Assembly: GCA_905233745.1 (NCBI GenBank)
Contig: CAJODA010000006.1
Coordinates: forward strand, 5-64,004
Direction: 5' to 3'
Length of the DNA stretch: 64,000 bases
Origin: an uncultured Bacteroidales bacterium
Lineage (GTDB): Bacteria; Bacteroidota; Bacteroidia; Bacteroidales; WCHB1-69
Both the position numbers and the translations under genes were made by a program. Shown here in pieces: positions 2,178 to 55,037 of the stretch. Each line of letters opens with the position of its first letter. The first letter of the stretch is position 1. The notes below the pieces were generated by a model. That model worked only from the letters and a program-made list of their open reading frames with translations, had not been told where the DNA came from and did not search any database.

Positions 2178-2410
2178 TTGAAAAGAAAGCGAGTTTTCGC
2201 TTATCCGTCTCGGTAAACCTGGACAGTTTAAATGTTAGTACGGATATCGGAAATCAAGCTTGCCTATGATGTGTTTATTTGCCGCATAGATGGGGCTTGT
2301 TCTTCAGTATCTTACTAACTGGGAGTCCAGCCCTACCGGGAGGATGCTGTCGGATAACGGCTCCACTTTCTTTTTGTCTTGTTTTGAAAATTATAAACCA
2401 AAATTTCATC

Positions 2411-5400
2411 ATGATGAAAAAGATTTTACTGTTTACTTTGGCTTTGGCAAGCATTGTGTCTGCATTCGCCCAAACAACCATCACGCTGACATTCAACGGG
2501 CAGGACCAAAACAACACCCGTGTACAACTCGACAATGTCGTCATCCAGAATGTGACCCGAGGATGGACTGAGGCCATCTTCTTTCCCGACACCATTTACA
2601 CGCTCACCGTCGGAACGGGTGTGGCGGACTATCTCCTTCACAGCGGGATGCAAGTGATGCCCAACCCTTTTGATGGGAGAACGCAGGTCAACATCCATGC
2701 CGTCAAGAGAGAATCCGTGACGATGACATTGATGGATATCAACGGCAAGCGATGCGCCGAATACAAGGGCTTATTGTCTGAGGGCAACAACTATTTCGAA
2801 ATAGAGCTCGTCACCCCGCAAACCTACATTCTATCAGTGCAAACCACTGAGGGCACACGCAGTCTGAAAATGGTGAATACCGGCGGTGCCGGGCGTAACC
2901 AAATCAAGGAATCTGGGGTGAGTGGCAACGCCGTGCAGCTGAAGAGCACCAAAGCGCACACCTTCGAACTGGGAGACGAGATGCGCTACACCGGCTACAG
3001 CCAACAGAGCAATGGACTGATACCCAGTACGCCGATTACGCAGAATCAATATGAGAGCGAGACAATCACCTTGCATTTCACACTTGAAAATGATGCCGAG
3101 CTTCCCATTGTGGCTACAGTTGCAGCCAGCAATATCGGCATAAACACTGCCACCACGGGCGGCAACGTCTTCTCGGACGGTGGAGCGCCCGTCACCGCCA
3201 GGGGTGTGTGCTATAGTGTGACACCCAACCCCACCCTGTCGGAGAGCCACACCACGGACGGCACAGGCACCGGCGTGTTTACGAGCAATCTCACCAACTT
3301 GGTGGAGAACACCACTTATTATGTGAGGGCGTATGCTACTAATAGTGCGGGTACGACATACGGCAACGAGATAAGCTTCACCACGGAGGCGGGGTCCTCT
3401 TCGGGGAATGCCTGTCCCGGCACCCCAACCGTCACCGACTACGATGGCAACATCTACAATACCGTGCAAATCGGCACCCAATGTTGGATGAAGGAGAATC
3501 TGAGGACCACGCACTATGCCAATGGCGACCCCATTGCCGAAGGCATCACATACAGCTCCGAGATTCCTTATAGATACGCACCCGACGGCAATGCGGCTAA
3601 CGTGACCGCATACGGTTACCTTTACAATTGGCCTGCGGTGATGCATGGCGACAGCAGCAGCAATGCCAACCCCAGCGGAATACAGGGTGCCTGTCCTGCG
3701 GGCTGGCATGTGCCCAGTGCTACCGAATGGGACCAACTGGCCACTTACGTAAACAGCCATAGCGAGTTCTTATGCGGCGGCTACAACAACTACATTGCCA
3801 AAGCCCTGGCATCCAATATAGGATGGAACTATCATAACGTGAGCGATGCCTGCGCAGTATGCAACAACCTCACGCAGAACAACGCCACTGGATTTTCCGC
3901 CATGCCGGCAGGACAAAGCTATGGAATCAACCACTATGGATTTGGCGACATGGCTGTCTTCTCAAGTTCCACGTTGGAAGATGATGATGAAGTTGAAATG
4001 CGAGGATTCTGTTATGATGACCCTAATTTGACTCAATGGCTCTGCGATGCTGACGGCAATCTGGAGGAAGGTTATTCGGTACGTTGCGTACGAGGCGAAG
4101 TGAATTCTGGAGATCAACTTCCCAAAGTAATTACTTTAGGTGTGACGAACATCGGCACCAGCTCCGCTACCTGCTTGGGCAATGTCATCAACAGCGGGAC
4201 AGCAACCGTTTCTGCCAGAGGTTTTTGCTTTAGCACGGCCCCTCACCCCACTATTGCAGACTATCATACCACTGACGGTAATGGTCCTGGTGCGTTCATC
4301 AGTAGTCCGACAGGGTTGGCAGAAGGCACGATGTACTATTTTCGCGCATACGCCACCAGTAGTTTTGGTACAACATACGGCAGTGAAGGGGCATTCATCA
4401 CAACTAATCCCAACGACGGACAATCATGCACGGGCATGCCGACGCTCACCGACTATGACGGCAACATTTACAACACCGTACAAATCGGCACACAGTGCTG
4501 GATGAAGGAGAATCTGCGTACTACACACTATGCCAACGGGGACGTTTGTAACACGCCTTCTGGTTCTTCATACGACGACCAAGCCCCTTGGCGTTTTATT
4601 CCTAACAACAACTCTAACAACGTGGCTGCGTACGGATATCTCTACAATCTGCCCGCCGTATTGCATGGCTCTGTCGGTAGCACTGCCATCCCCAGTGGGG
4701 TGCGTGGCATTTGTCCCGTGGGCTGGCACATGCCAAGCCTTGCAGAATTCCAGTTGCTTTCTGCCTACCTAGGCAGTCGTAGCATGTACCTGTGCAACAA
4801 TTCCAATCTGAACACGGCCAAATCCTTGGCTGACTCTATAGGATGGGAAAATTATGACTTTTACAGCGGATGCTCTGTAGGATACAATCCATCACAGAAC
4901 AACACATCTGGATTTTCCGCTCGTCCCGCTGGTGACCGTTCAGGTTACTTTGGGGAAAAGGCTTGTTTTTGGACTGTCTCGACGTTTCAGAATAATAATT
5001 ATTATGAAACCTTAAGCGCAAATTATTTAGGACTTTACTATTCCTCTTCGAGTATTACAACATCATCTTCAAACAATAACGCTTTCTCTATACGCTGTGT
5101 ACGTGACGAATTCAACAGTGCAGCAACGTTACCCAATGTTACAACAGATTCGGTGGTTGTCATTTCAGAAGAGGTAGCTTCGTTAGCCGGCAAAGTGATC
5201 TCTGCTAACGGTGCTACAGTAACAGAGTATGGTATGTGCTGGAACACCTCTTCCAATCCTACTCTCGCAGGTAGTCATCGCGCTTTTGGGGATGGACTTG
5301 GTTCCTTTTCTGCCGTGGTTGGGGAATTCATCCCTGGTACCACCTATTATTTGCGTGCATACGCCACCAACAGTGCAGGAACTGGTTATGGCAACGAGTT

Positions 5401-8400
5401 GACTTTCACGATGCCATCGGCTGATAATCATGGCCAGCCATGTGTAGGCATGCCTACCGTAACCGATCACGAAGGCAATGTTTATAACACAGTGCAAATC
5501 GGCAACCAATGCTGGATGAAAGAGAACATGCGTTGCACCACCTCTCCAAAGGGGATACTCGGCAATGGTAACACACTTTACTATAATGACACTACATCTA
5601 TCATTCCGTTGGAAAAACGCGGACTGCTATATTCCTGGGAAGGTGCAATGGACACCACATTGTCTAATGTAAATTCACAAATATCTGTCTCAAACATCAG
5701 GGGAATTTGTCCAGAAGGATGGCATATCCCGAGCATGGCTGAATGGACAACATTACAAAACTTCGTAAACAGTCAAAGCGAATATCAGTGCGACAACATC
5801 AATAACTATATTGCCAAAGCTATAGCCTATCCTTACTACTGGAAGAATTACGACAATAACTGCGCCGTGGGTAATTCTCCGGCAAACAACAATGCCACGG
5901 GTTTTTCCACAATTCCCGCAGGGATACATGACGGTTCTGCTATCAACAGTTCGGCGAATTACGCATATTTTTGGTCAAGAACAACAACTGTTCATGCCAC
6001 CGCTAATCCCAGTCTTCATATCAGTTTCTTCTACGCTCGATATTTCTCATTAACCTATTCCAATACTACAGTGAACGTCGATGGCGAAATCAGCATGTTT
6101 CGCGGTTGTTCTGTTCGATGTCTTCGTGACATTGAAGTGACAACTAACGAAGCTACCAATGTAACAGTAACCTCTGCCACACTCAGCAGCAGCGTTTCCA
6201 AGCCCAGTAATACAACAATTACCACTCGTGGCTTCCAATGGAAAAAAACTACTGATTCTGTTTATACATCAGTGTCAAACCTCATGTCAGTAACAACTTC
6301 CCCGACAAGTATAACAATGTCACGTACCCTATCAGGGCTTGAAGCAAATACTTCCTATACATATAGGGGATACGTCACATGCAATGGTATTACCTATTAT
6401 GGTAACGAAGTATCTTTCACGACATTATCAGCTACTGTTCCCTCCGCGAACACCACAGACGCCACAAACGTAACGGCAACAACTGTCACACTCCATGGAA
6501 GTGTTTCCAATCCCGACAATGTAACGATATCATCTCGGGGCTTTGAATGGAAAATCTCTACTGCAAATGTCTACACAGTGACAAACATAACCGCAACAGG
6601 TGCTACGATGTCTCACATTCTTACTGGTCTGACGGCTAACACGCAATACATTTATCGTGCGTTTGTAACCACCACGGACAGTACAATCTATGGTAATGAG
6701 ATTTCTTTCACGACATTGGAGACATCTTTAGAGCCCTCCGCCACTACCTTTTCCGCAACTAACCTTACCTCCACTTCCGCCACCCTAAACGGCACCGTCT
6801 CCAATCCTGACAACGTGACTGTTACCGCGCAAGGTTTTGAGTGGAAGCCTAGTGATGCTTCCTCATACACACAGGTAATCGCTACTGGATCTACGATGAT
6901 ATACAATCTCACCAACCTCACAGAAAGCACTCAATATACCTATCGCGCATATGCAACAACTACCAATGGAACGAGCTACGGTGATGAAATATCTTTCACT
7001 ACTCTATCATCCTTAACCATCTTAATTGAGGATTTCTCCCGTATTACCGACAGTACTCCTTACACCATTTCCAACAATTTGAACAACTATACCCAGGTGC
7101 CTGGATGGACAGGCGACTGGGTATATCCGAGCAACGGCAAGGTAAAAATCGGAAAATCGGCACAAGCGGGCTATATTCAGACCCCACCAATTAATCTGTC
7201 AGGCAACAACGGCCAATTTTTGGTAACATTTGACGCGAAAGCTTGGCCTGGTGACGCTACCAGTCTCATCGTTGCTGTAAACGGTGTTCCTTATACGGTA
7301 AATGGTCTCAGCACCACAGCTTTCAACACGTTTTCCGTGCCATTCAGCGGTGGTACTTCTTCCACCGTCGTCAAGTTCCAAGGTTCACAAGAAACCCGTG
7401 GACGTTTCTACTTGGACAATATAATCATTACTGAATACGAACCAGGCCCTGATACCATCGCCCCATTTGTGACAAACCTTACCCCAATCACAAGCGATAC
7501 CCTTAGTGTTACATTCAACGAGAATCTTGACCCTTCATCTGCACAAACCACTTCAAACTACGTGATTGACAACAATATCACTATAACTTCCGCCACGCTG
7601 AACAACAATGTGGTCACATTGGCAGTATCGCCGGCATTGTCTGACAACACATACACATTGATTATCAATAATGTTTCTGACGTGAATGGCAACGTGAATT
7701 TGTTTCCCGACACAATTTGGTTCTCCTACGGCGTCAGTCCAGAATTTCACGTGGCCAACATCTCTGCCCTGCGTACAAAATTAGATTACACCGACGTTTA
7801 CAACTCCACTATATCCAATTTTGAATACAAGTTAACTGGCGAAGTAGTGGTTACCGCCGTTGCAGCATATAACAACCAGAAGATACTTCAGGATGCTACT
7901 GGCGCAATCCTGGTGTACGATCCGGATAACAGCTTAGGCTCCCTTGAAGTCGGCGATAAGGTGAAAGACCTATACGGCACACTGATCAACTACTACGGAT
8001 TCCTTGAATTCAAACCTACAAGAGCTTATGGTTCTCTTATCAGCATAAACCAAGATGTCACACCCTTAACCATCACTCTATCGCAACTCAACAACCCAAG
8101 CTTCATGATCCAGCACCAAGCTGAATTAATCAAGCTGAACAACGTGACATTCACTTCCACGGGAACCTTTGCTACACTCAACACTTACGGGATCACCCAG
8201 AACGGTATCACCACCAATGCTGTTTACCCATATTTCCAAGATGCCAACTTTATCGGTGCCAACATACCCACTGGTCCCGTCAATATCACTGGCTTCAGCT
8301 TTGGCACCAGCAAGATTGCTAACAACTTTTTTGACTTCCGCTACTTTATCGTGCCTCGTAATACGAGCGATTTCAGTTCCAGTGGATCAGTCTCGCAATC

Positions 8401-8647
8401 TCTATCCGAAAATGAAATTATTGTATATCCAAATCAAGACGGCGATATCCTCACGGTTATCCTTCCCGCCAACGAATTCCAGGCAACAGACATGTTCGTA
8501 TTTGACAACAACGGCAACCTCATTCTTACGCAACAAATCACTGACAACCATATTTCATTGGATGTGCAAAATCTTCCTGCCGGCAACTATTTCCTGCGTT
8601 TGAGCGACAGCAGTCACAGCGCAACTACGAAGTTCGAGAAGAGATAG
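2411..8647 (+). CDS. Giant (2079 aa) modular T9SS-secreted surface protein with three Fibrobacter-succinogenes-major-paralogous (FISH) lectin-like domains
   Basis: ORF 2279..8647, trimmed to MMKKILLFTLALASIVSAFAQ (signal peptide) at 2411. The FISH signature occurs three times (C..PTVTDYDGN.YNTVQIG.QCWMKENL...YGYLYNW...GICP.GWH.PS..EW..L...GFSA.PAG...FW....RCVRD). It also carries Ig-like repeats. The C-terminal ~78 aa (VYPNQDGDILTV...LPAGNYFLRLSD...TKFEKR) match the T9SS type A sorting domain (Por_Secre_tail). Confidence 0.9.
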   Translation: MMKKILLFTLALASIVSAFAQTTITLTFNGQDQNNTRVQLDNVVIQNVTRGWTEAIFFPDTIYTLTVGTGVADYLLHSGMQVMPNPFDGRTQVNIHAVKRESVTMTLMDINGKRCAEYKGLLSEGNNYFEIELVTPQTYILSVQTTEGTRSLKMVNTGGAGRNQIKESGVSGNAVQLKSTKAHTFELGDEMRYTGYSQQSNGLIPSTPITQNQYESETITLHFTLENDAELPIVATVAASNIGINTATTGGNVFSDGGAPVTARGVCYSVTPNPTLSESHTTDGTGTGVFTSNLTNLVENTTYYVRAYATNSAGTTYGNEISFTTEAGSSSGNACPGTPTVTDYDGNIYNTVQIGTQCWMKENLRTTHYANGDPIAEGITYSSEIPYRYAPDGNAANVTAYGYLYNWPAVMHGDSSSNANPSGIQGACPAGWHVPSATEWDQLATYVNSHSEFLCGGYNNYIAKALASNIGWNYHNVSDACAVCNNLTQNNATGFSAMPAGQSYGINHYGFGDMAVFSSSTLEDDDEVEMRGFCYDDPNLTQWLCDADGNLEEGYSVRCVRGEVNSGDQLPKVITLGVTNIGTSSATCLGNVINSGTATVSARGFCFSTAPHPTIADYHTTDGNGPGAFISSPTGLAEGTMYYFRAYATSSFGTTYGSEGAFITTNPNDGQSCTGMPTLTDYDGNIYNTVQIGTQCWMKENLRTTHYANGDVCNTPSGSSYDDQAPWRFIPNNNSNNVAAYGYLYNLPAVLHGSVGSTAIPSGVRGICPVGWHMPSLAEFQLLSAYLGSRSMYLCNNSNLNTAKSLADSIGWENYDFYSGCSVGYNPSQNNTSGFSARPAGDRSGYFGEKACFWTVSTFQNNNYYETLSANYLGLYYSSSSITTSSSNNNAFSIRCVRDEFNSAATLPNVTTDSVVVISEEVASLAGKVISANGATVTEYGMCWNTSSNPTLAGSHRAFGDGLGSFSAVVGEFIPGTTYYLRAYATNSAGTGYGNELTFTMPSADNHGQPCVGMPTVTDHEGNVYNTVQIGNQCWMKENMRCTTSPKGILGNGNTLYYNDTTSIIPLEKRGLLYSWEGAMDTTLSNVNSQISVSNIRGICPEGWHIPSMAEWTTLQNFVNSQSEYQCDNINNYIAKAIAYPYYWKNYDNNCAVGNSPANNNATGFSTIPAGIHDGSAINSSANYAYFWSRTTTVHATANPSLHISFFYARYFSLTYSNTTVNVDGEISMFRGCSVRCLRDIEVTTNEATNVTVTSATLSSSVSKPSNTTITTRGFQWKKTTDSVYTSVSNLMSVTTSPTSITMSRTLSGLEANTSYTYRGYVTCNGITYYGNEVSFTTLSATVPSANTTDATNVTATTVTLHGSVSNPDNVTISSRGFEWKISTANVYTVTNITATGATMSHILTGLTANTQYIYRAFVTTTDSTIYGNEISFTTLETSLEPSATTFSATNLTSTSATLNGTVSNPDNVTVTAQGFEWKPSDASSYTQVIATGSTMIYNLTNLTESTQYTYRAYATTTNGTSYGDEISFTTLSSLTILIEDFSRITDSTPYTISNNLNNYTQVPGWTGDWVYPSNGKVKIGKSAQAGYIQTPPINLSGNNGQFLVTFDAKAWPGDATSLIVAVNGVPYTVNGLSTTAFNTFSVPFSGGTSSTVVKFQGSQETRGRFYLDNIIITEYEPGPDTIAPFVTNLTPITSDTLSVTFNENLDPSSAQTTSNYVIDNNITITSATLNNNVVTLAVSPALSDNTYTLIINNVSDVNGNVNLFPDTIWFSYGVSPEFHVANISALRTKLDYTDVYNSTISNFEYKLTGEVVVTAVAAYNNQKILQDATGAILVYDPDNSLGSLEVGDKVKDLYGTLINYYGFLEFKPTRAYGSLISINQDVTPLTITLSQLNNPSFMIQHQAELIKLNNVTFTSTGTFATLNTYGITQNGITTNAVYPYFQDANFIGANIPTGPVNITGFSFGTSKIANNFFDFRYFIVPRNTSDFSSSGSVSQSLSENEIIVYPNQDGDILTVILPANEFQATDMFVFDNNGNLILTQQITDNHISLDVQNLPAGNYFLRLSDSSHSATTKFEKR
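3104..6130 (+). repeat. Three tandem ~330-aa intragenic modules, each one Ig-like domain plus one FISH domain (3104-4096, 4118-5107, 5129-6130)
   Basis: Repeated peptide blocks such as TARGVCYS/SARGFCFS/TEYGMCWN ... TTYYVRAYATNSAGTTYGNEISFTT, then CPGTPTVTDYDGNIYNTVQIGTQCWMKENLRTTHYANGD. The DNA at 3440-3536 versus 4447-4543 is ~85-87% identical by eye. Confidence 0.85.
6134..7006 (+). repeat. Three tandem ~95-aa Ig/Fn3-like intragenic repeats
   Basis: The block pattern ATNVT.T.ATL.G.VSNPDNVT...RGFEWK....Y........M...L.GL.ANT.Y.YRA...T....YGNEISFTTL occurs three times. Confidence 0.85.
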
Positions 8648-8693
8648 ACGTATGATTTAAGATTAACGTAAACTCAAAATCAGTGAACAGTCG

Positions 8694-8733
8694 AGGGCGT
8701 GGCCGTGGGGCTGCGCCCTTTGGTTTTGTTTGT
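8694..8733 (+). terminator. Intrinsic terminator of the giant surface-protein gene
   Basis: An 11-bp stem (AGGGCGTGGCC / GGCTGCGCCCT, including 2 G-U pairs) with a 4-nt loop, followed by TTGGTTTTGTTTG. It lies 47 nt after the stop codon. Confidence 0.6.
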
Positions 8734-8786
8734 GGGGTAACGCTGGAGGTTACGCTGGAGGTTAGAGACGCGGTTTGTGTTGGGGG

Positions 8787-8809
8787 TTCCGCCAGCAGAG
8801 CTGGCGGAA
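8787..8809. repeat. Perfect 10-bp-stem hairpin TTCCGCCAGC-AGA-GCTGGCGGAA, one member of a local hairpin family
   Basis: It shares the flanks GGGGG...TGGTGGGG with the hairpins at 9641-9663, 10086-10109 and 10200-10222. It is preceded by a tandem ACGCTGGAGGTT duplication (8749-8772). Confidence 0.8.
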
Positions 8810-8901
8810 TGGTGGGGTTGGGATATTATTTTATCGTAAGTGGCTATAACGGAGAAAATTGATTTTTTTCATGATGACATCCGCCGTCTAAAAAATATTT
8901 G

Positions 8902-8909
8902 TACTTTTG
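8902..8909 (+). promoter_or_regulatory. -7 box TACTTTTG with no protein-coding gene downstream on this strand
   Basis: Exact TAnnTTTG match. The only plus-strand feature downstream is a hairpin plus T-run at 8984-9014. Confidence 0.35.
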
Positions 8910-8916
8910 CGGTGTC

Positions 8917-9014
8917 GTTTTACCATACAGAGCAGGTAACGAAGACTGTCAGCGTCGATGTTTTTGACAGTGACGAACAATATAAGACCGAGGTTTCACT
9001 TCGGTCTTTTTATT
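8917..9014 (+). ncRNA. Candidate ~95-nt small RNA, convergent with the 3' end of CDS 8996..9442
   Basis: Bounded by the -7 box at 8902-8909 and by a perfect 8-bp hairpin (AAGACCGA 8984-8991 / TCGGTCTT 9001-9008) followed by TTTATT. The T-run is on the plus strand only. There is no convincing ORF. This is a prediction only. Confidence 0.3.
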
Positions 9015-9442
9015 ATGTCAAAGGCCGAAAGCAACCACTTTTTCGTTTTCCCATCATCACTTTTTTCCACCGCCACGATAAATCGGAATGTCTTACTTTC
9101 AAACACTTTTTTTTGACCGTCTGACTTCTTCAAGTTGAAATTGCCGAATTGAACAACAATAGGGATGAAATCCTCCACATTAAATCCCAGTTTGTTAATA
9201 TCAATTTCGTGTTTGTCAATAATGTGGGCCAACCCATATCCCCTGTGCTTGATTGGGTCTGAGACCTCACCCCAAACAATGTCAATATCACCAATATCAC
9301 TACGATGCAGCGCCGCAATACATTCGCCATTCATTTTTTCACGAAGAAATCTAATGGCTTCCTTTGGCTTTCCTGCAAATTGCCTGTACAGAGGACCATA
9401 TTTCCCTGTTTCAACATTTGATTCTTCAATAGTTGTTTTCAT
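8996..9442 (-). CDS. Hypothetical 148-aa cytoplasmic protein; possibly a stand-alone domain of the kind found in phage/ICE polyvalent proteins (PBECR-like nuclease), very tentative
   Basis: A clean ORF with its own -7 box. The motifs IDIVWGEVSD...GYGLAHIIDKHE resemble polyvalent-protein nuclease modules from memory. It has no signal peptide. Confidence 0.55.
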   Translation of the reverse strand: MKTTIEESNVETGKYGPLYRQFAGKPKEAIRFLREKMNGECIAALHRSDIGDIDIVWGEVSDPIKHRGYGLAHIIDKHEIDINKLGFNVEDFIPIVVQFGNFNLKKSDGQKKVFESKTFRFIVAVEKSDDGKTKKWLLSAFDIIKRPK

Positions 9443-9495
9443 AATTGATTAAAATTTGTTTGGAATTATACCTATTGTTAATGATAATTTAACGG

Positions 9496-9503
9496 CAAAA
9501 ATA
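9496..9503 (-). promoter_or_regulatory. -7 box (TATTTTTG on the minus strand) for CDS 8996..9442
   Basis: Exact TAnnTTTG match, 54 nt upstream of the ATG at 9442. Confidence 0.45.
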
Positions 9504-9634
9504 CATCACAAAAAACTTTTGGCTAGAGTTTTGCGGAAATAATTATCAGTGTAATAATCAATGTATTAGCATTTTACTCTGTGTAAAATTAAGAATTGAT
9601 TGTTAACGGGTAGTGATTGATATGGGAAAAATGT
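9496..9634. repeat. Copy A of a ~140-bp direct repeat (partner at 11203-11342)
   Basis: The core 9553-9634 aligns with 11259-11342 at ~80% identity by eye (TAATAATCA.T.T.TTAG.A.TTTAC...GTGTAAAATTAAGA.TTGATTGTTAACG.GT.G...TGAT.TGGGAAAAAT). Weaker similarity continues through the -7 boxes. Confidence 0.75.
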
Positions 9635-9635
9635 T

Positions 9636-10114
9636 GGAGGTTCCGCCGCCGTTGGCGGCGGAATGGTGCTGGTTCAGCGGTGCGTTTGTGGTGTTTCGCG
9701 GCGGGTTGGTTCCATACCTCGGCGCATGTGTGTCGCGCGCCGCGACCCATCGCACAGGCCGTCCCGCACCCAGGGGTTGACACCCCTGGTTACAGATATG
9801 TAACGCCTACGGCGTTAGTGCTGACAGCGTTGACGTTGTCGGAGATTGAACCTGTCGATGGTGACTGTGCTTGTCGAAGTCACCGGCAATAATAAGCAGG
9901 TTAACCGGTATTCCTGCCACCAGTCCAACGCCGTAGGCGTTGCATATTATAGCCAGAGATGTCAATCTCTGGGATTGTGGTATATGATGACCCCGTGTGC
10001 GTAATCGCGGCGCGGGGTCGCGTGCACCGAAGCATAATGTTTGCCCGCCGCGAAACGTCCATCATTATCCACCAACCCACCACCATTCCGCGCGACATGT
10101 CGCGCGGAATCTCC
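9636..10114. repeat. ~480-bp imperfect palindrome: two inverted, diverged copies (9636-9817 and 9927-10114) of a hairpin-rich GC-rich element around a 110-bp core
   Basis: Arm matches are listed as left arm / right arm.
- 9636-9668 / 10081-10114.
- GTTTCGCGGCGGG 9693-9705 / CCCGCCGCGAAAC 10044-10056.
- Hairpin 9770-9789 / hairpin 9953-9972.
- AACGCCTACGGCGTT 9802-9816 / AACGCCGTAGGCGTT 9927-9941.
A central hairpin GGTGAC...GTCACC lies at 9860-9884. Confidence 0.8.
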
Positions 10115-10143
10115 ACCGATGAATAGTATTCAGAGAACACCCA

Positions 10144-10232
10144 AGGGCGCGGACGTGGGGCTGCGCTCTTTTGTTTTGTGTGGGGGTTCATGCTGGAGGT
10201 TCCGCCGCCGTTGGCGGCGGAATGGTGGGTGG
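10144..10232 (+). repeat. Second copy of the 'terminator-like hairpin + T-run + GGAGGTTCCGCC hairpin' module seen at 8694-8817
   Basis: AAGGGCGCGGACGTGGGGCTGCGCTCTTTTGTTTTGTGTGGGGG matches 8693-8738. The perfect hairpin TTCCGCCGCC-GTT-GGCGGCGGAA at 10200-10222 is identical to the one at 9641-9663. Confidence 0.75.
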
Positions 10233-10269
10233 CTTGATAAGGCGAAATAAGCTAAATAGTTAGTTTTTA

Positions 10270-11180
10270 TTATGGTCTAAGCTCCATGATTTCCTCGCTG
10301 CTCAGGCCGGAAACGCGTACTATAGTCTCTATTGCGATACCTTCCGCAATCATGTTTAGTGCTAATTGGCGCTTTTCTGCCATTTTCCCTTCGTTCAATC
10401 CTTCGATCCGCCCCTTTTCCATACCAATCTCAATACCCTCTTCTATGCCGTCTTCACGGGCGCAGATGATGGCCCCTTGCACGTCTTTGTACTCCAAAAC
10501 GCTCTTCTTGTATTCTTTTCGTTCCATGTTGGTTAGTTTGTTATCCTGCATTCCTCTATGAACTTTCGGAAAACGCCCTGTTCCTCTGCGCCGTAGTCCC
10601 GATTGGTGCTGCCGCCGATGGAGGTGAGCAGCTCGAGCCATCTGCGCGTGTGGGCATTATCCAAAATCTTGTCTTTAACGGCTGCAAATTTACACAATTC
10701 GACGAAAAAAAAGGTGGTTTTGTCGCTGAAAATTTTATTGGTCTCGTCCTTGAGCATAACCTTGTGGAAATAACGGTCATTGCCTCTGAACTCCGGTGCG
10801 TTGTAGTCCAGCAGGTTGAAGGAATAGACAGAAGGAATTGCATAGTCGCTTTCTCCTTTTTCCATTTCCCTGCTGATGACCCTGCTCACGTACGAGATGA
10901 TTCTGTCGGCGAAGAAGGGCTGTCGAGCCCGTTGCATCTCGATGATGAATCTGTCGCCGTTTTGGTTTTCGCAATAGATGTCGAAAATCACCCTCTTGTC
11001 TTCCGGCCTCTCGCCGAACATCTCTGTCTGCAGGAAGGTGATGTCGGTGATGATGCCGACTTCATCGGAAATGCTGGAATTGAGGAAGTCAATGAGGATG
11101 TCCTTGTTGTTTTCGGAGGCGGAGATCCGCTTGAAGCCGAAATCGGACAGCGGATCGAAAAATATCATGTCTTTCTTCAT
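10270..11180 (-). pseudogene. Rpn-family (YhgA-like, PD-(D/E)XK 'putative transposase') gene split over two frames
   Basis: ORF 10533..11180 (MKKDMIFFDPLSDFGFKRI...IIEMQ...) carries the N-terminal nuclease part. ORF 10270..10641 carries the family's typical C-terminal repeat (EDGIEEGIEIGMEKGRIEGLNEGK...GLSSEEIMEL) in another frame. The frame change lies near 10530-10560. Confidence 0.7.
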
Positions 11181-11202
11181 AGTAAAATGTTTTAGGTTGC
11201 CA

Positions 11203-11210
11203 CAAAGATA
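11203..11210 (-). promoter_or_regulatory. -7 box (TATCTTTG on the minus strand) for the Rpn-family gene
   Basis: Exact TAnnTTTG match, 23 nt upstream of the ATG at 11180. Confidence 0.45.
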
Positions 11211-11342
11211 CAACACGAAAACACTTTTGTCAAGAATTTTGTGAGAAATGTTTTTAATATAATAATCAGTATGTTAGAAATTTACGAGGTGTAAAATTAA
11301 GATTTGATTGTTAACGAGTGGAGGCTGATTTGGGAAAAATAT
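11203..11342. repeat. Copy B of the ~140-bp direct repeat (partner at 9496-9634); overlaps the last ~10 codons and the stop of mpg
   Basis: See copy A. The mpg stop codon (TAA, 11311-11313) lies inside the shared GATTGTTAACG block. Confidence 0.75.
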
Positions 11343-11922
11343 TGCCGGTTTTGATTAAAAACCGATACGGCAGCAGCGCATCCTCACCCGCGTAGCCCAC
11401 GCCGATGCGCGGGGTGACCGCAATCTGATCATCGGGAATCTGAAGCCCCCGGTCCTCTATCCAAATCATATCGCCCGTGAGCGGGCAGCCATTGTCCGCT
11501 ACCGTAAGGCCCAACAGCTTGCTCACCTTGCCGGGGCCGGAACCCATGTCGCGCGACATCCGACCCTTGCCCGTGCGCCGCAACATCAGCTCCTCACCAT
11601 GCGTGGGGATGATGCCGCGGATGAGCACAGCGTCAGGAATGTCCTCCTCGTTGGTCACGAAATTGAGGAGATGGTGCATCCCATAACAGAGATACACATA
11701 CGCCACCCCACCCTCGTGGTACATCATCTCGTTGCGGCGCGTGCGACGGCCTCCGTAGGCGTGCGAGGCCCTGTCCGCCGTGCCCTTGTACGCCTCCACC
11801 TCCGAGATAATGCCACCCGCCAGCTGACCTTCCTTCAGGGTGAAAACATATTTTCCCAAAAGATTACGGGTGAGAGCTAGCACATCATGTTGTAAAAAAT
11901 ACGACTTTTGCAAACGGCTCAT
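11311..11922 (-). CDS. mpg: DNA-3-methyladenine glycosylase (Mpg/AAG family)
   Basis: LLGKYV...GGIISEVEAYKG..DRASHAYGGRRTRRNEMMY.EGG.AYVYLCYGMHHLLN...IPDAVLIRG...GPGK..K.LG......G......IWIED...PRIGV is the classic AAG-family pattern. The start was chosen at MSRLQKSYF (11922). Confidence 0.85.
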   Translation of the reverse strand: MSRLQKSYFLQHDVLALTRNLLGKYVFTLKEGQLAGGIISEVEAYKGTADRASHAYGGRRTRRNEMMYHEGGVAYVYLCYGMHHLLNFVTNEEDIPDAVLIRGIIPTHGEELMLRRTGKGRMSRDMGSGPGKVSKLLGLTVADNGCPLTGDMIWIEDRGLQIPDDQIAVTPRIGVGYAGEDALLPYRFLIKTGNIFPKSASTR

Positions 11923-12014
11923 ACAGCAGGAATAATAGTGTCGCAAAGGAACAAAAAAAACGAATATCCTGCAACGGAAAGCGTGCTTAAATCGTTAATA
12001 GGTTGTTTAAAGCA

Positions 12015-14746: not shown

Positions 14747-16833
14747 AAAAACTTTTCATATTCATATCATTCATTCTTCTCAGCTTCTATGGTTTTGCCA
14801 TAGAACCGCCGAAGCTCCAGTGTATCGAGCAGCTCATCAATCCCAGAGAGTTGCGCATCACCTGGTCTTGGAATGATATGAGCAACGTGTCCATAAATGA
14901 TGAATACACCTTCATCATCAACAATGTGGAGGTCAGCACCTCTGTGCACCCGCATCCAGACAACACCATATACCGGTCATCCACCACTATTATCTTAAAT
15001 GACAACCAATTGAGCAACCATTACACCTGCCAGATTCATGCAACGAATACTGTTACAGGCGAAGCATGCATGTCGAATGCCATGAGCACCATACTGCTTA
15101 CCGTGACACCATACGACCTGCAGGGCGACAGCACGGCAGCGTTTCTGCAATGGGATGCCGTAAGCTCCTCCATCGATGGCGGTTCCTGGGACAATGTCTA
15201 TCACATTTACAAAAAACGGAGTTTTGAGCCTGACTTTGGTGCCACCCCCATCGGCTCCGTGCCCACCACCGGTGATCTCACCTATATAGACCCTTCGGAT
15301 GTATGTCACAACTACATCTCCTATCAGGTGGGCATCACCAATCACATCAACACAGCCGGAGGCAGCTCCTGCGTCTTCAAGTCCAACATCCAAACGGTAT
15401 TCTTGAACGACAGCATTCTTCCCTCCGCACCTATCCTTGACAGCATTTCCGTTACAGAAGACAACCATGTTGTGATGGGATTCCATGCCCCAGACCCGTA
15501 TATGATGTGCTATCCGGTTTACTATCTGGATGGCAGCATCCGCCTGCCACTGCACACGGTGTATGATGCAACCTATTGGATGGATGCCAGTGTTAACCCC
15601 AACGAGGTAAGCCGCGAGTATTTCATTGCCGTGCTGGACTCGTGCAACAACAGTTCACACCAGACCGACAGCGGTCAGTGTAACATCCGCCTGAGCCATC
15701 CTACCACCGATGCCTGCCACAGAACCGCGCAACTCTCCTGGAACGCTTATAAGAACATGCACGGCGGGGTAGGTTCTTACACCATATTACTGAGCGAGGA
15801 CAACGGCATATCATACAACGCCGTGGGCAACACCACCGGTACTTCGTTCACGCTTTCAGATTTGCAACTTAACACCGCATACCGAGTGTTTGTCAGGGCG
15901 AACAACACAGACAACAGCATCACATCCAGCAGTAATCGGGTAAACTTCTCTATTGATGCGGAAGAGTCTGATGACATGACGTACATCCGTCATGTGTCGG
16001 TAATGGACAACCGTTATATCTCCATATTGGTGCACACCAGCGGTGATGAATATCCTTTCAACACCATCACTTTGCAACGGAGCGAGAATGGACAGGATTT
16101 CGAAGACCTGGCAACCCTCCCCTATCACAATGGCACGGAATATGAATTCATGGACAGCACCGCCCAATTCAACAAAAAAGTCTATTATTACCGTACGTAC
16201 GTCATCAGTTCCTGCAACATTCCCGCAGGATACTCCAACATTTCCCACAACATCCTATTGACCGGAACAACCTCCTCCGCCCACGACTGCAACCTGGAAT
16301 GGAACAATTATGGGACATGGAACGGTGACATCAACCATTACTCGGTTAGTCGAAAAACGGAGTACGACACTGTTTTTCTGGAATTGACCGGATCCATCGT
16401 ACCGCGCCTGCACAACACCTACGGTGACGATGTCTCCATGCTGTTCCAGCAAGGCTCATTGTTCACCTACTACGTCACTGCACACGAAACTTTGAACGAA
16501 TATGGATTTCAGGACGAAAGCATCTCCAACCATGTGACCCTGCAACAGGAATCCAGCATGATTATCCCCAATGCCTTTTCACCGAACCAGGACGGGCACA
16601 ATGACATATTCCTCCCATCCAACGCTTTTGTGTCCAGTTCCAATTATGAGCTTAGAATAATTTCCAGATGGGGGAAGACGGTATTTAGGACCTGTAATCC
16701 CACAGAGGGATGGGATGGTCGTGACATGAATGGTGAAAACGCCCCTGTCGGAGTTTACGTTTACATCATCAATTATATGAACACTCAGGACAAGGCCGTA
16801 CAGGTGCGCGGAAGCGTAACCCTGCTCCGATAA
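14743..16833 (+). CDS. T9SS type B cargo protein with several Fn3/Ig-like beta domains
   Basis: Signal peptide MKKLFIFISFILLSFYGFA. The C-terminus is IIPNAFSPNQDGHNDIF...EGWDGRDMNGENAPVGVYVYIINY...VRGSVTLLR, the gliding-motility-associated C-terminal domain. Its start overlaps the M16 stop (ATGA). Confidence 0.8.
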   Translation: MKKLFIFISFILLSFYGFAIEPPKLQCIEQLINPRELRITWSWNDMSNVSINDEYTFIINNVEVSTSVHPHPDNTIYRSSTTIILNDNQLSNHYTCQIHATNTVTGEACMSNAMSTILLTVTPYDLQGDSTAAFLQWDAVSSSIDGGSWDNVYHIYKKRSFEPDFGATPIGSVPTTGDLTYIDPSDVCHNYISYQVGITNHINTAGGSSCVFKSNIQTVFLNDSILPSAPILDSISVTEDNHVVMGFHAPDPYMMCYPVYYLDGSIRLPLHTVYDATYWMDASVNPNEVSREYFIAVLDSCNNSSHQTDSGQCNIRLSHPTTDACHRTAQLSWNAYKNMHGGVGSYTILLSEDNGISYNAVGNTTGTSFTLSDLQLNTAYRVFVRANNTDNSITSSSNRVNFSIDAEESDDMTYIRHVSVMDNRYISILVHTSGDEYPFNTITLQRSENGQDFEDLATLPYHNGTEYEFMDSTAQFNKKVYYYRTYVISSCNIPAGYSNISHNILLTGTTSSAHDCNLEWNNYGTWNGDINHYSVSRKTEYDTVFLELTGSIVPRLHNTYGDDVSMLFQQGSLFTYYVTAHETLNEYGFQDESISNHVTLQQESSMIIPNAFSPNQDGHNDIFLPSNAFVSSSNYELRIISRWGKTVFRTCNPTEGWDGRDMNGENAPVGVYVYIINYMNTQDKAVQVRGSVTLLR

Positions 16834-47966: not shown

Positions 47967-47974
47967 TATTTTTG
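47967..47974 (+). promoter_or_regulatory. -7 box TATTTTTG driving the riboswitch leader
   Basis: Exact TAnnTTTG match, ~10-15 nt before the start of the aptamer-like sequence. Confidence 0.5.
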
Positions 47975-47984
47975 CAGCGAATTT

Positions 47985-48155
47985 CAGTGAACGGCTCCTT
48001 TTGGAACCGTGAGAGGGAAACAGGTGCGATTCCTGTGCAGTACCCGCTGCTGTGAGTTTCGACACTCCGCCACCCACCAAGTCAAAGCCACTGTTACCGA
48101 GTAACGGGAAGGCCGGTGCCCCGGAGGAAACAAGCCAGAAAACCTGCTGGACTTC
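47985..48155 (+). promoter_or_regulatory. Cobalamin (B12) riboswitch aptamer
   Basis: Conserved blocks appear in the right order:
- AGGGAA (48014-19).
- CAGGTGCGATTCCTG (48021-35).
- CCCGCTGCTGTGA (48043-55).
- GCCACTG (48087-93).
- GGGAAGGC (48106-13).
- B12-box-like AGCCAGAAAACCTGC (48133-47).
The aptamer lies in a 350-nt leader before the ATG at 48266. Confidence 0.8.
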
Positions 48156-48265
48156 AAATAACGTGAACAGCTTCGGGACATAGGCTTACACAGAATGGAG
48201 ACAATCTTCATTTTAAAGTTTCCCAAAGCAATGGCACATTTTTGTATAACTTAAAATTTCCAAAA

Positions 48266-49681
48266 ATGAAAAAGATTTTGTGTTTATTGCTGGTATCATT
48301 ATCCATGAATCTCTATGCTCAGTTCGATCAGTTGCCGGACGACGCCACTCTGGATGCCGACAACATCATCTATTGGGTGGGCAATGGCAACGGCCAGGCA
48401 GTGCTGGCCGTAAACTGGGCGTCGCCAGACACCTGCCTGGCCTGGGGTGTGCGCTTTGACGGCGACAGCGCCCTGGTGGCTGACCTGCTGCACACCTTGT
48501 CCATCTACGACGACCGCTTCAACTACACCTCCTCTGGAAACATGATCGACAGTATCAACTTCCTCGGATTTCATCGCACTGGTAATTGGTGGATGTACAA
48601 CATCAACGGTAGCGGCGCACCGCTGGGTTTCAACTCCCAATATGTCGGCAACGGCGACTTCATAAAATTCGGGGACGAGAGTTGCGGGGTATCCGACACC
48701 AACTTCAACTATGCCTGGACAAAAACGGTGACACCTGCGGATCTTCCCGACCAGACTGCCATGCTATTCTGCGACTCTGTAGGAACTCCTGGCTGCCAAG
48801 CCATTCGATTCGACAACCCTGCCATTATTGCATGGGCATCGAATTGCACCATCAACCGGGGATTGAAGAACATTTCCAACAGCTCGCTCGGTTATGCCAA
48901 CTACGGTGATGACAGTGACTGCATCGGTCCCAGTAGCGAGTCCACCACCGATGGCGTAGCCAGTCTCGGCGACGCGGGAACAGCTGTGCTGACCTTCGAC
49001 CAGCCCATCAGCAATGGCGAAGGATACGACTTTGCTGTATTTGAAAACTCCTTGAACTCCACTTTCCTGGAACAGGCTTTTGTGGAGGTGAGCTCCGATG
49101 GCGAACACTACTACCGTTTCCCTTCCATATCAAACACACAGGCCACCACACAAATCACCAATGGTGGCGCTGTTGACCCGCGCAAGATACATAACCTGGC
49201 CGGCAAATACATCGTCGGTTGGGGCACTCCATTTGACCTTGAGGAACTCGCCGGATACAGCAACCTGGACATCAACAACATTACGCATGTGCGCCTTGTA
49301 GATGTGGTGGGCTGCATCAACCCACTTTACGGCTCCATTGACAAAAACGGACATATCATCAACGACCCCTACCCTACCCCATGGGGCAGCAGCGGATTTG
49401 ACCTCTCCGGCGTGGCTGTCATGAATGGATGGCTCCCCAACAGTATCACAGAACAATCAATGGCATCTAACCTGATTGCCTACCCCAATCCTTGCAACAG
49501 TATTTTGTATATCGACGATCTGCAACCTGAATCTTCGGTTGAACTCTTTAACATCTTTGGCCAACTAATTTGGCAAGGTAACGCTTACGACAGCCGCATT
49601 CAGATCAACATGGAGCCCTATCCCAATGGTGTATATGTTGTCAAATCCGGCTGTCAAACTGTTAAGATTGTTAAAAGATAA
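48266..49681 (+). CDS. T9SS-secreted protein with an N-terminal DUF4430/transcobalamin-beta-like domain, an unassigned middle domain and a type A CTD
   Basis: Signal peptide MKKILCLLLVSLSMNLYAQ. Residues encoded at ~48359-48679 (ALVADLLHTL...GNMIDSINFLGF....WWMYNINGSGAPLGFNSQYVGNGDFIKFGD) fit the DUF4430 pattern. The last ~70 aa (IAYPNPCNSILYIDDL...VELFNIFGQLI...PNGVYVVKSG.QTVKIVKR) form a Por_Secre_tail domain. Confidence 0.8.
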   Translation: MKKILCLLLVSLSMNLYAQFDQLPDDATLDADNIIYWVGNGNGQAVLAVNWASPDTCLAWGVRFDGDSALVADLLHTLSIYDDRFNYTSSGNMIDSINFLGFHRTGNWWMYNINGSGAPLGFNSQYVGNGDFIKFGDESCGVSDTNFNYAWTKTVTPADLPDQTAMLFCDSVGTPGCQAIRFDNPAIIAWASNCTINRGLKNISNSSLGYANYGDDSDCIGPSSESTTDGVASLGDAGTAVLTFDQPISNGEGYDFAVFENSLNSTFLEQAFVEVSSDGEHYYRFPSISNTQATTQITNGGAVDPRKIHNLAGKYIVGWGTPFDLEELAGYSNLDINNITHVRLVDVVGCINPLYGSIDKNGHIINDPYPTPWGSSGFDLSGVAVMNGWLPNSITEQSMASNLIAYPNPCNSILYIDDLQPESSVELFNIFGQLIWQGNAYDSRIQINMEPYPNGVYVVKSGCQTVKIVKR

Positions 49682-54998: not shown

Positions 54999-55037
54999 GA
55001 AAGGGTTCCGGCGCATGCCGGAACCCTTTCATTTTTG
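54999..55037 (+). terminator. Intrinsic terminator (14-bp perfect stem)
   Basis: GAAAGGGTTCCGGC-GCAT-GCCGGAACCCTTTC followed by ATTTTTG. It sits between the 54302 gene and the convergent tRNA. Confidence 0.8.

Follow-up and report, generated by a model that had tools for sequence, protein, structure and literature searches.

A palindromic intergenic element of a ruminant-gut Bacteroidales genome carries predicted Acido-Lenti-1 motifs and resembles a REP/BIME-type repeat cluster between nuclease cassettes

In Escherichia coli the repetitive extragenic palindromes (REPs) and the bacterial interspersed mosaic elements (BIMEs) that contain them have an accepted dual role, as barriers and as homology for recombination. 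The neisserial intergenic mosaic elements (NIMEs) consist of repeat sequence (RS) units flanked by dRS3 repeats of the form ATTCCC-N8-GGGAAT. The Acido-Lenti-1 motif was found in Acidobacteria and Lentisphaerae, sometimes near group II introns, and was graded a probable RNA (Weinberg et al. 2010, PMC2864571); annotated copies have since been noted downstream of Tannerella protease genes, beside long unannotated stretches (2026 preprint). Here we describe an imperfect palindrome of about 480 bp at positions 9636–10114 of a 64,000-nt stretch of DNA from an uncultured Bacteroidales bacterium (assembly GCA_905233745.1, contig CAJODA010000006.1; the whole stretch is called the window below). An inspection of the sequence alone, the original prediction, had described two inverted and diverged copies of one element and had offered three candidates, a fold-back or miniature inverted-repeat transposable element (MITE), a REP-type cluster and a structured non-coding RNA. 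In our reading the region is neither a gene nor a single fold-back transposon, and the REP-type cluster is the best fit of the three. The element is a compound Bacteroidales variant of a catalogued, unexplained repeat/RNA motif in a BIME-like arrangement. We hold with moderate confidence that it belongs to a REP/BIME-like cluster of structured intergenic repeats, placed at the boundaries of small exchangeable nuclease cassettes (PBECR1, Rpn, GIY-YIG and ORF6N); the cluster would serve as a hairpin barrier or terminator and as homology for recombination.

The two arms of the palindrome (9636–9817 and 9927–10114) aligned as reverse complements with a mean column identity of 77%. Two blocks were identical in both arms, GTTTCGCGGCGGG (9693–9705 and 10044–10056) and CGCGCCGCGA (9736–9745 and 10005–10014), and a third block of 21 nt (9796–9816 and 9927–9947) showed 95% identity. 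The central hairpin (GGTGAC at 9860–9865 with GTCACC at 9879–9884) and the local hairpins of each arm were present as first described. So were the two pairs of stems said to have changed in a compensated manner: CCAGGGGT-TGAC-ACCCCTGG in one arm stands against CCAGAGAT-TGAC-ATCTCTGG in the other, and TTCCGCCGCC-GTT-GGCGGCGGAA against TTCCGCGCGA-CATG-TCGCGCGGAA. These compensated changes keep the hairpins within each arm and lower the pairing between the arms. The element is also as GC-rich as had been claimed, with a G+C content of 0.51–0.60 in 200-nt windows, compared with 0.25–0.40 just to its left and a window average near 0.47. The hairpin pattern TTCCGC..GCGGAA occurred four times where 0.07 occurrences were expected. 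Folding was better than that of shuffled sequences, with z = -3.2 and -3.15 for the single arms, and for the whole region z = -8.5 (483 nt, as a DNA strand) and -11.8 (607 nt, as RNA).

The same structure was present in the nearest genome record, the water-buffalo metagenome-assembled genome (MAG) RGIG7800 (94% identical; related loci are numbered with the prefix L, and this one is L001), and in identical form in two ENA assemblies (L083 and L084), while single Logan contigs from four runs span it. Since independent assemblies and single spanning contigs show the structure, an assembly artefact is excluded. Logan contigs of several runs break exactly at two identical copies of the outer hairpin (9639–9664 and 10198–10223); the repeats thus fragment short-read assemblies of the locus. 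The four open reading frames (ORFs) called across the palindrome (9589–9783, 9617–9892, 9901–10191 and 10041–10250) had been dismissed as mirror-image artefacts. The two longest (9617–9892 on the plus strand and 9901–10191 on the minus strand), to which the Pfam scan was confined, had no Pfam match. No reading frame is kept across homologues, as the length of the outer hairpin varies among copies (22, 23 or 24 nt). A protein-coding reading was rejected on these grounds.

By its sequence and predicted fold, the inner 46–47 nt of each arm (9770–9816 on the plus strand, 9927–9972 on the minus strand) is the Acido-Lenti-1 motif, Rfam RF01687. A permissive Rfam scan assigned the right-arm segment to this family with 38.4 bits (E = 1e-6; the gathering score is 37), and the alignment agreed in the UGAC loop, in the GGCUA..UAUGC linker and in GCCUACGGC. 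The left arm, in which the linker is 1 nt longer, was not reported in the Rfam scan. A model built from nine copies outside the Bacteroidales (R1; from Acidobacteriota, Verrucomicrobia, Gemmatimonadaceae, a delta-proteobacterial MAG and an unclassified bacterial MAG) scored 47.2 bits on the left arm (E = 3e-12) and 44.8 bits on the right arm, and found nothing else in the 64-kb window. The RF01687 layout against which we compared the arms consists of an 8-bp hairpin with a 4-nt UNAC loop, a linker of 12–13 nt (GGCUA...UAUG), a 5-bp hairpin with a 3-nt loop and a trailing U. Both arms share this plan, in the form GGYUA..UAUG for the linker, and reach threshold scores; both have a UGAC loop, the linkers GGUUACAGAUAUG and GGCUAUAAUAUG, and the hairpin ACGCC-UAC-GGCGU followed by U. 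The original prediction had held that none of its candidates is annotated in standard feature sets. A default Rfam scan of the whole window indeed missed RF01687, but the right arm reaches the gathering score of that family; since the inner arms correspond to Acido-Lenti-1, the element is not wholly outside such sets. No other Rfam family was found in 8600–10400, nor in the alternative centre that one related locus (L043) carries.

The compensated changes also hold in the context of the family, and the structural part of the original inference is sound. In an alignment of 17 Acido-Lenti-1 copies, those of the window included, which was fitted to the model, 97% of the cells were paired and 9 of the 13 pairs changed on both sides. 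Such two-sided changes were counted in 34 cells, as against 7.8 ± 2.4 in shuffled alignments, none of the 500 shuffles reaching the observed number. At least six phyla share the fold, the loop and the linker of the motif, although its stems take many different sequences. In 17 copies of hp1, the outer hairpin of the arms, from the window and rumen loci, the outer six pairs were invariant, and the inner stem occurred in five versions (GCCAGC, GCCGCC, GCGCGACA, GCGC and AACGATGC) with 140 of 141 cells paired. All hp1 stems are perfect Watson–Crick helices with no wobble pair. The second hairpin, hp2, gives no evidence of covariation because its stem is invariant, and this invariance was, in the metagenome loci, partly forced by the search pattern.

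Each repeat unit extends over about 190–250 nt and comprises, in fixed order, hp1, hp2, the Acido-Lenti-1 segment (UGAC loop, GGYUA..UAUG linker) and a weak terminal hairpin (Table 1). The consensus of hp1 is TTGGRGG-TTCCGC..GCGGAA-TGGTGG, and the window holds four copies (starting at 8787, 9641, 10086, which is inverted, and 10200). Elsewhere in the 64 kb a TTCCG..CGGAA palindrome occurs just once (55006–55023); it lacks the conserved flanks and resembles an ordinary terminator. Two of the hp1 copies lie beyond the limits first given, as does a terminator-like unit in duplicate (T1 and T2; 8680–8755 and 10130–10205 are 82% alike), so that the repeat region reaches from about 8680 to 10235. 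In the classical copies of Acido-Lenti-1, by which we mean those of other phyla, a second hairpin (TGTCGC-hairpin-CU) lies about 23 nt before the 8-bp hairpin, and TGTGTCGCGCGCCGCGACCC occupies the same place in the left arm of the window. The 46 nt of the published motif are thus only the central part of a longer unit outside the Bacteroidales as well.

The left and right arms differ in more than orientation. Among arm bodies from related loci (five loci for the left type), left-type (L) sequences were 78–93% alike and right-type (R) sequences 86–99% alike, while L and R were only 53–61% alike. Judged from these identities, the arms belong to two subtypes that separated long ago within one family and here stand tail to tail, L on the plus strand and R on the minus strand. 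Since each type is conserved across loci and diverged from the other, the palindrome represents juxtaposed family members and not a recent inverted duplication, and the simple fold-back of one element that had been considered at first is not upheld. In L043 and L037 the outer arms are shared with the window and the centre of about 190 nt is different; its inner hairpins are others, but their order is that of the window. Single (solo) L units were found in L018 and in Logan contigs of two runs; they start near the position equivalent to 9677 and end directly behind the central hairpin at 9885, after which T-rich DNA follows. In L028 and L057, hp2 is followed by a variant two-hairpin motif, and in the source metagenome hp1 has about 5 more copies and hp2 stands in 2 more contexts. 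These loci were sorted from a metagenome scan with the hp2 pattern in which 66 of 72 loci were GC-rich chance matches without the Acido-Lenti-1 motif; only L018, L037, L040, L043 and L057 are related to the window, and L028 and L055 weakly so. Within the element, the window and L001 differ mostly by clustered replacements of 2–7 nt in loops and tips (for example GTT to AAA at 9651–9653, CATAC to AGGGA at 9713–9717 and a replaced tip at 10094–10100), the rest being scattered single-base changes. No empty site was found in 8 metagenome runs. Variation was confined to the centre, the tips and the adjoining cassettes.

The published family shows a similar organization. Its seed (PMC2864571 supplement) has 87 sequence rows, mostly from one Lentisphaera genome, and the table of the paper lists 89 representatives. 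Copies in the seed form tandem runs with periods of 69–200 nt and comprise two subtypes in alternating orientation, as in ABCK01000016 (15957–15912 on the minus strand, 16051–16096 plus, 16196–16151 minus, 16291–16336 plus); their flanks confirm the inverted neighbours. Among the loci that we retrieved, L003 has three Acido-Lenti-1 copies in 5 kb and L005 has two. Nine classical loci were surrounded by unrelated housekeeping genes, and no recurrent gene was linked to the motif among 63 flanking ORFs. The Acido-Lenti-1 family thus behaves like a clustered repeat of the REP/BIME type and not like a single-copy RNA gene, and the copies of the window resemble the published ones in being multi-copy, clustered and sometimes in inverted pairs. 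They differ in their host, a rumen Bacteroidales bacterium as opposed to the Acidobacteria and Lentisphaerae in which the family was defined, and in that the motif lies inside a conserved unit with hp1, hp2 and a terminal hairpin.

Like the REPs and BIMEs of enterobacteria, the units are extragenic imperfect palindromes kept as hairpins, often past the 3' end of a gene, and act as hot spots of recombination and insertion (general features; PMC3733652). As in E. coli BIMEs with their Y and Z REPs, there are two subtypes, which take turns in inverted orientation and are joined by set linkers. Unlike REPs, the units are much longer and compound, and their two arms are far more diverged than those of the REP doublets (REPINs) of Pseudomonas. 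The likeness to NIMEs lies in hp1: TTCCGC-N11/12-GCGGAA is, as dRS3 is, an invariant outer palindrome with a free centre, and its copies bracket repeat units of 50–450 nt near genes for surface proteins or variable genes. The two differ in phylum and are not related in sequence, and a NIME/dRS3 of the Neisseria type in a Neisseriaceae genome was rejected; the window contains no DNA uptake sequence of any dialect, and its type IX secretion tails, Fib_succ_major domains and promoter-like words point to Bacteroidota. We know of no filamentous prophage or IS110-type enzyme that targets hp1. A plasmid or phage origin was likewise rejected, as blastn searches of PLSDB and INPHARED gave no match, and neither the hp1 pattern nor the Acido-Lenti-1 pattern matched viral contigs. 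T1 and T2 resemble intrinsic terminators in being GC-rich hairpins followed by T-runs, and the minus-strand hp1 stands at the place of the mpg terminator; the Acido-Lenti-1 hairpins and hp2 differ from terminators in having no T-run, and the T-run of hp1 begins 8 nt past its stem.

The palindrome is placed between the promoter region of the PBECR1 gene and the 3' end of the Rpn gene, in an array of small minus-strand genes downstream of a gene for a large type IX secreted adhesin, and the composition of this array differs between loci. After the adhesin gene the window has PBECR1 and Rpn cassettes followed by mpg, L001 has GIY-YIG, PBECR1 and Rpn cassettes, and L043 has an ORF6N cassette followed by a kinase gene. 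The small genes of the array have in common an AT-rich upstream region of about 150 nt that abuts hp1. This region precedes four unrelated genes (PBECR1, Rpn, GIY-YIG and ORF6N), contains the invariant stretch GTGTAAAATTAAGAATTGATTGTTAACG, and may serve the genes in common as a promoter or as a site for a regulator, or else be the end of a cassette. The extra GIY-YIG cassette of L001 (1620–2530, corresponding to 8680–8790 of the window) is bounded by direct repeats, each about 55 nt long and made up of the hp1 linker module. L001 has additional hp1 copies, one with a 13-bp stem (TTCCGAACGATGC), and a 37-nt copy of the same linker module is inserted at the point that corresponds to 9633 of the window. 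Taken together, compensated change maintains the hairpins, the modules recur in reshuffled combinations, and the differences in cassettes and centres map to the repeats.

The position of the units relative to genes bears on what they may do. The R arm follows the co-oriented Rpn gene, the R arms of L043 and L037 follow the kinase gene, the units of L018 and L057 follow upstream genes, and five classical copies lie 60–140 nt after a co-oriented gene. At the exits of the palindrome stand T2 on the plus strand and, on the minus strand, hp1 followed by CAACAUUUUU, which lies at the position that the mpg terminator has in the next boundary. The placement after co-oriented genes and the terminator-like features at both exits suggest a hairpin barrier in the 3' untranslated region (3'-UTR) that would insulate the cassettes. 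When single-stranded, the modules would form stable hairpins. The most likely setting is the untranslated 3' part of the transcript of the upstream gene, which is Rpn in this case; single-stranded DNA during replication is another possible one. Such hairpins would stop read-through and exonuclease attack between adjacent cassettes, and the sequence identity of the repeats would supply homology for recombination.

Several observations weigh against an assignment to the REP/BIME type. The copy number is low, with one locus in 64 kb and a handful more in the source metagenome, whereas classical REPs number in the hundreds. The tetranucleotide tag (GTAG or CGTC) at one end of REP palindromes is absent: on the complementary strand, GTAA (left) and ATAG (right) stand by the 8-bp hairpin, and GTAG itself occurs only in L043 and L037. 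No REP-associated tyrosine transposase (RAYT, of the Y1 HUH type) or other enzyme was found in the 64-kb window and in loci of up to 14.8 kb, and no RAYT family was among the most frequent Pfam matches around the classical copies; K. versatilis and R. baltica, which both carry the motif, are reported to have tyrosine transposases with repeat families (PMC3733652), which provides a lead only. Independent copies are few, and as several rumen loci were retrieved by a pattern fixing the hp2 stem and the classical copies by one fixing the loop and the linker, the conservation of these parts is partly so by construction. The perfect inner stems could have come from template switching in quasi-palindromes and not from selection. 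The region occurred in no RNA run that we found, so that any effect at the RNA level is purely inferential. The evidence on the strand conflicts as well: the orientation of genes and the U-rich tails after solo units point to the annotated strand, and the seed points to the opposite one. Its non-Watson–Crick pairs comprise 38 A.C/C.A and 8 G.U/U.G among 70 distinct rows, two recurrent variants of the one Lentisphaera genome dominating, and this excess of A.C would correspond to wobble pairs on the strand opposite to the Rfam annotation, if the motif folds as RNA.

Of the other explanations, the one that survives best is that each arm is a functional structured RNA, be it a 3'-UTR element, a small RNA derived from a 3'-UTR or an independent small RNA gene, the two forming a convergent pair that possibly controls the adjacent genes of the toxic nucleases Rpn and PBECR1. 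We think this rather unlikely. The covariation supports structure, and the unpaired UGAC loop and the GGYUA..UAUG linker, conserved across phyla, suggest specific recognition, in line with the published grading as a probable RNA; tandem and alternating clusters of many copies are, however, atypical of a trans-acting RNA gene, and no gene family in particular is linked to the motif. The units mostly follow a co-oriented gene, the solo L units end in a hairpin and then T-rich DNA, and L028 has an intrinsic terminator within about 40 nt of its unit, which also speaks for this explanation. Against these stand the lack of a promoter of the Bacteroidetes type (TAnnTTTG) upstream of the left arm on the plus strand, the lack of an RNA run with the region, and the A.C excess of the seed, which argues against the annotated strand as the folded RNA.

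A second explanation takes the whole palindrome as a non-autonomous fold-back element or MITE with terminal inverted repeats of about 180 nt, moved by a transposase encoded elsewhere. Terminal inverted repeats are present, both starting with TGGAGRTTCCGC, but no target-site duplication accompanies them: the flanks in the window read ..AAAAATGT/TGGAGG and CTCCA/CCGATGAAT, and L043 and L037 have no direct repeat. These two loci do share the outer arms around a different centre, and the right flank varies by locus (Rpn or a kinase gene), both in favour of this explanation; the left flank is nevertheless constant, being the same cassette promoter region, so that no independent insertion was seen, and no strain cleanly lacks the element. 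Transposon ends are normally kept alike, whereas the arm bodies are diverged with each type conserved. As half-units and single modules also occur alone, and as the centre is replaced in L043 and L037, movement of the palindrome as one unit is not borne out, and we find it doubtful that the element is of this kind. We assign as little credence to the proposal that the L and R units, of about 210 nt around the Acido-Lenti-1 segment, are an element specific to the Bacteroidales which, with hp1 and the AT-rich region, would define and insulate mobile nuclease or toxin cassettes, possibly with a dedicated enzyme or RNA-based control of the toxic nucleases.

It is very unlikely, in our judgement, that hp1 and the AT-rich region form a site for site-specific recombination in an integron-like array of nuclease cassettes, to which the long arms would be accessory. 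All four kinds of cassette carry the AT-rich 5' region abutting hp1, cassette content varies at these junctions among related genomes, and hp1, invariant outside and free in its centre, looks like a protein-binding palindrome. The crossover region of a tyrosine recombinase is, however, longer than the 3–4 unpaired nucleotides of the free centre of hp1, the cassettes have promoters of their own, no recombinase gene lies in the immediate neighbourhood, and homologous recombination between the 55-nt direct repeats explains the cassette difference of L001 equally well. An integron attC site was rejected, as the junctions TTGTTAAC and GTTAACG fall outside the core-site consensus (RYYYAAC/GTTRRRY) and no integrase was found among the neighbouring genes scanned. 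That the compensatory changes are altogether a product of mutation (template switching or hairpin-templated repair in quasi-palindromes) is highly improbable, for although near-identical strains differ mostly by runs of 2–7 adjacent bases at tips and loops and hp1 stems lack wobble pairs, such a process explains the birth of perfect stems but not the persistence of hairpins, the conservation of stems beside freely varying loops, or an Acido-Lenti-1 fold, loop and linker kept in so many phyla with many stems.

Table 1. Modules of the repeat region, copies of the AT-rich region and neighbouring genes (window coordinates unless a locus is named)
Feature	Position	Strand	Score or source
T1, terminator-like unit (GC hairpin and T-run) just past the adhesin stop codon, homologous to T2	8693–8730	+	
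'Half-hp1' linker, GCTGGAGGTT decamer repeats and GGTTAGAGACGCGGTTTGTG; precedes hp1 at several cassette boundaries	8741–8786	+	
hp1 copy a; stem 8787–8809 (TTCCGCCAGC-aga-GCTGGCGGAA), conserved flanks GGGGG and TGGTGG	8777–8821	+	65.5 bits
AT-rich conserved region upstream of PBECR1 cassette, abutting hp1	9496–9635	-	
hp1 copy b, outer hairpin of left arm; stem 9641–9663 (TTCCGCCGCC-gtt-GGCGGCGGAA)	9634–9668	+	66 bits
hp2 of left arm; GTTTCGCGGCGGG and CGCGCCGCGA able to pair, 8-bp stem, variable loop of ~30 nt	9693–9745	+	
Left Acido-Lenti-1 (predicted): 8-bp hairpin with UGAC loop, linker, 5-bp hairpin (6 bp here, AACGCC/GGCGTT)	9770–9816	+	
L-unit 3' extension, ending in central hairpin 9860–9884; solo L units stop here	9817–9885	+	
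R-unit 3' extension: hairpin GCAGG..CCTGC (9896–9917), then UUAUUAUU on minus strand	9885–9926	-	inferred from sequence
Right Acido-Lenti-1 (predicted)	9927–9972	-	RF01687 38.4 bits; model R1 44.8 bits
hp2 of right arm	10005–10056	-	
hp1 copy c, outer hairpin of right arm; stem 10086–10109 (TTCCGCGCGA-catg-TCGCGCGGAA)	10074–10119	-	
T2, terminator-like unit, homologous to T1	10143–10180	+	
hp1 copy d; stem 10200–10222; 97% direct repeat of 9631–9668	10190–10234	+	
AT-rich region, copies in window	9496–9642; 11203–11350		
AT-rich region, copies in L001	2369–2521; 4999–5139		
AT-rich region, copy in L043	3085–3250		
Adhesin gene (2122 aa; Fib_succ_major domains, type IX secretion tail)	2279–8647	+	
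PBECR1 nuclease gene	8996–9442	-	
Rpn/PDDEXK_2 nuclease gene, split in two ORFs	10270–11216	-	
mpg gene	11311–11946	-	

The organism is an uncultured ruminant-gut member of the Bacteroidales, and the metagenomes that contain the region are goat, bovine and other gut sets. An exact-protein look-up with PBECR1 returned only loci identical to the window within the element, and one with mpg returned no record. A hairpin with a T-run on the plus strand (8984–9008) overlaps the 3' end of the minus-strand PBECR1 gene and may be a two-way terminator. The Rpn/PDDEXK_2 gene consists of two overlapping ORFs in the window, L083 and L084, and is whole (310 aa) in L001 (4069–5001); contigs of several runs have an extra T after 10536. 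The split yields a separate C-terminal ORF, annotated as HTH_Rpn_C in L083, which is reminiscent of the intragenic antitoxins reported for rpn genes (PMC10400941). Elsewhere in the window, a cobalamin riboswitch (RF00174, 91.4 bits) lies at 47968–48165 on the plus strand, upstream of an ORF at 48242–49681. In L028 the stretch at about 1560–1700, past the repeat unit and the terminator, resembles a riboswitch leader and may be cobalamin-like. We found no paper on these repeats in the Bacteroidales.

The most useful outcomes of this work are the link to Acido-Lenti-1, the evidence that the Acido-Lenti-1 family is a clustered repeat, and the context of cassette boundaries. Acido-Lenti-1, an Rfam entry since 2010, has no assigned function, and the range given for it is narrow; the locus offers several handles on it: the motif is present in rumen Bacteroidales, it forms the core of a larger modular hairpin unit, and it is clustered in the manner of BIMEs both there and in the seed of the family. 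The strand annotated in Rfam may merit re-examination. Regions of this sort typically give rise to false ORFs in genome annotation and to contig breaks. As for the biology of these bacteria, small nuclease genes form a variable array beside an adhesin gene, with the repeats at its joints, and it is plausible that strains of gut Bacteroidales vary especially at this locus.

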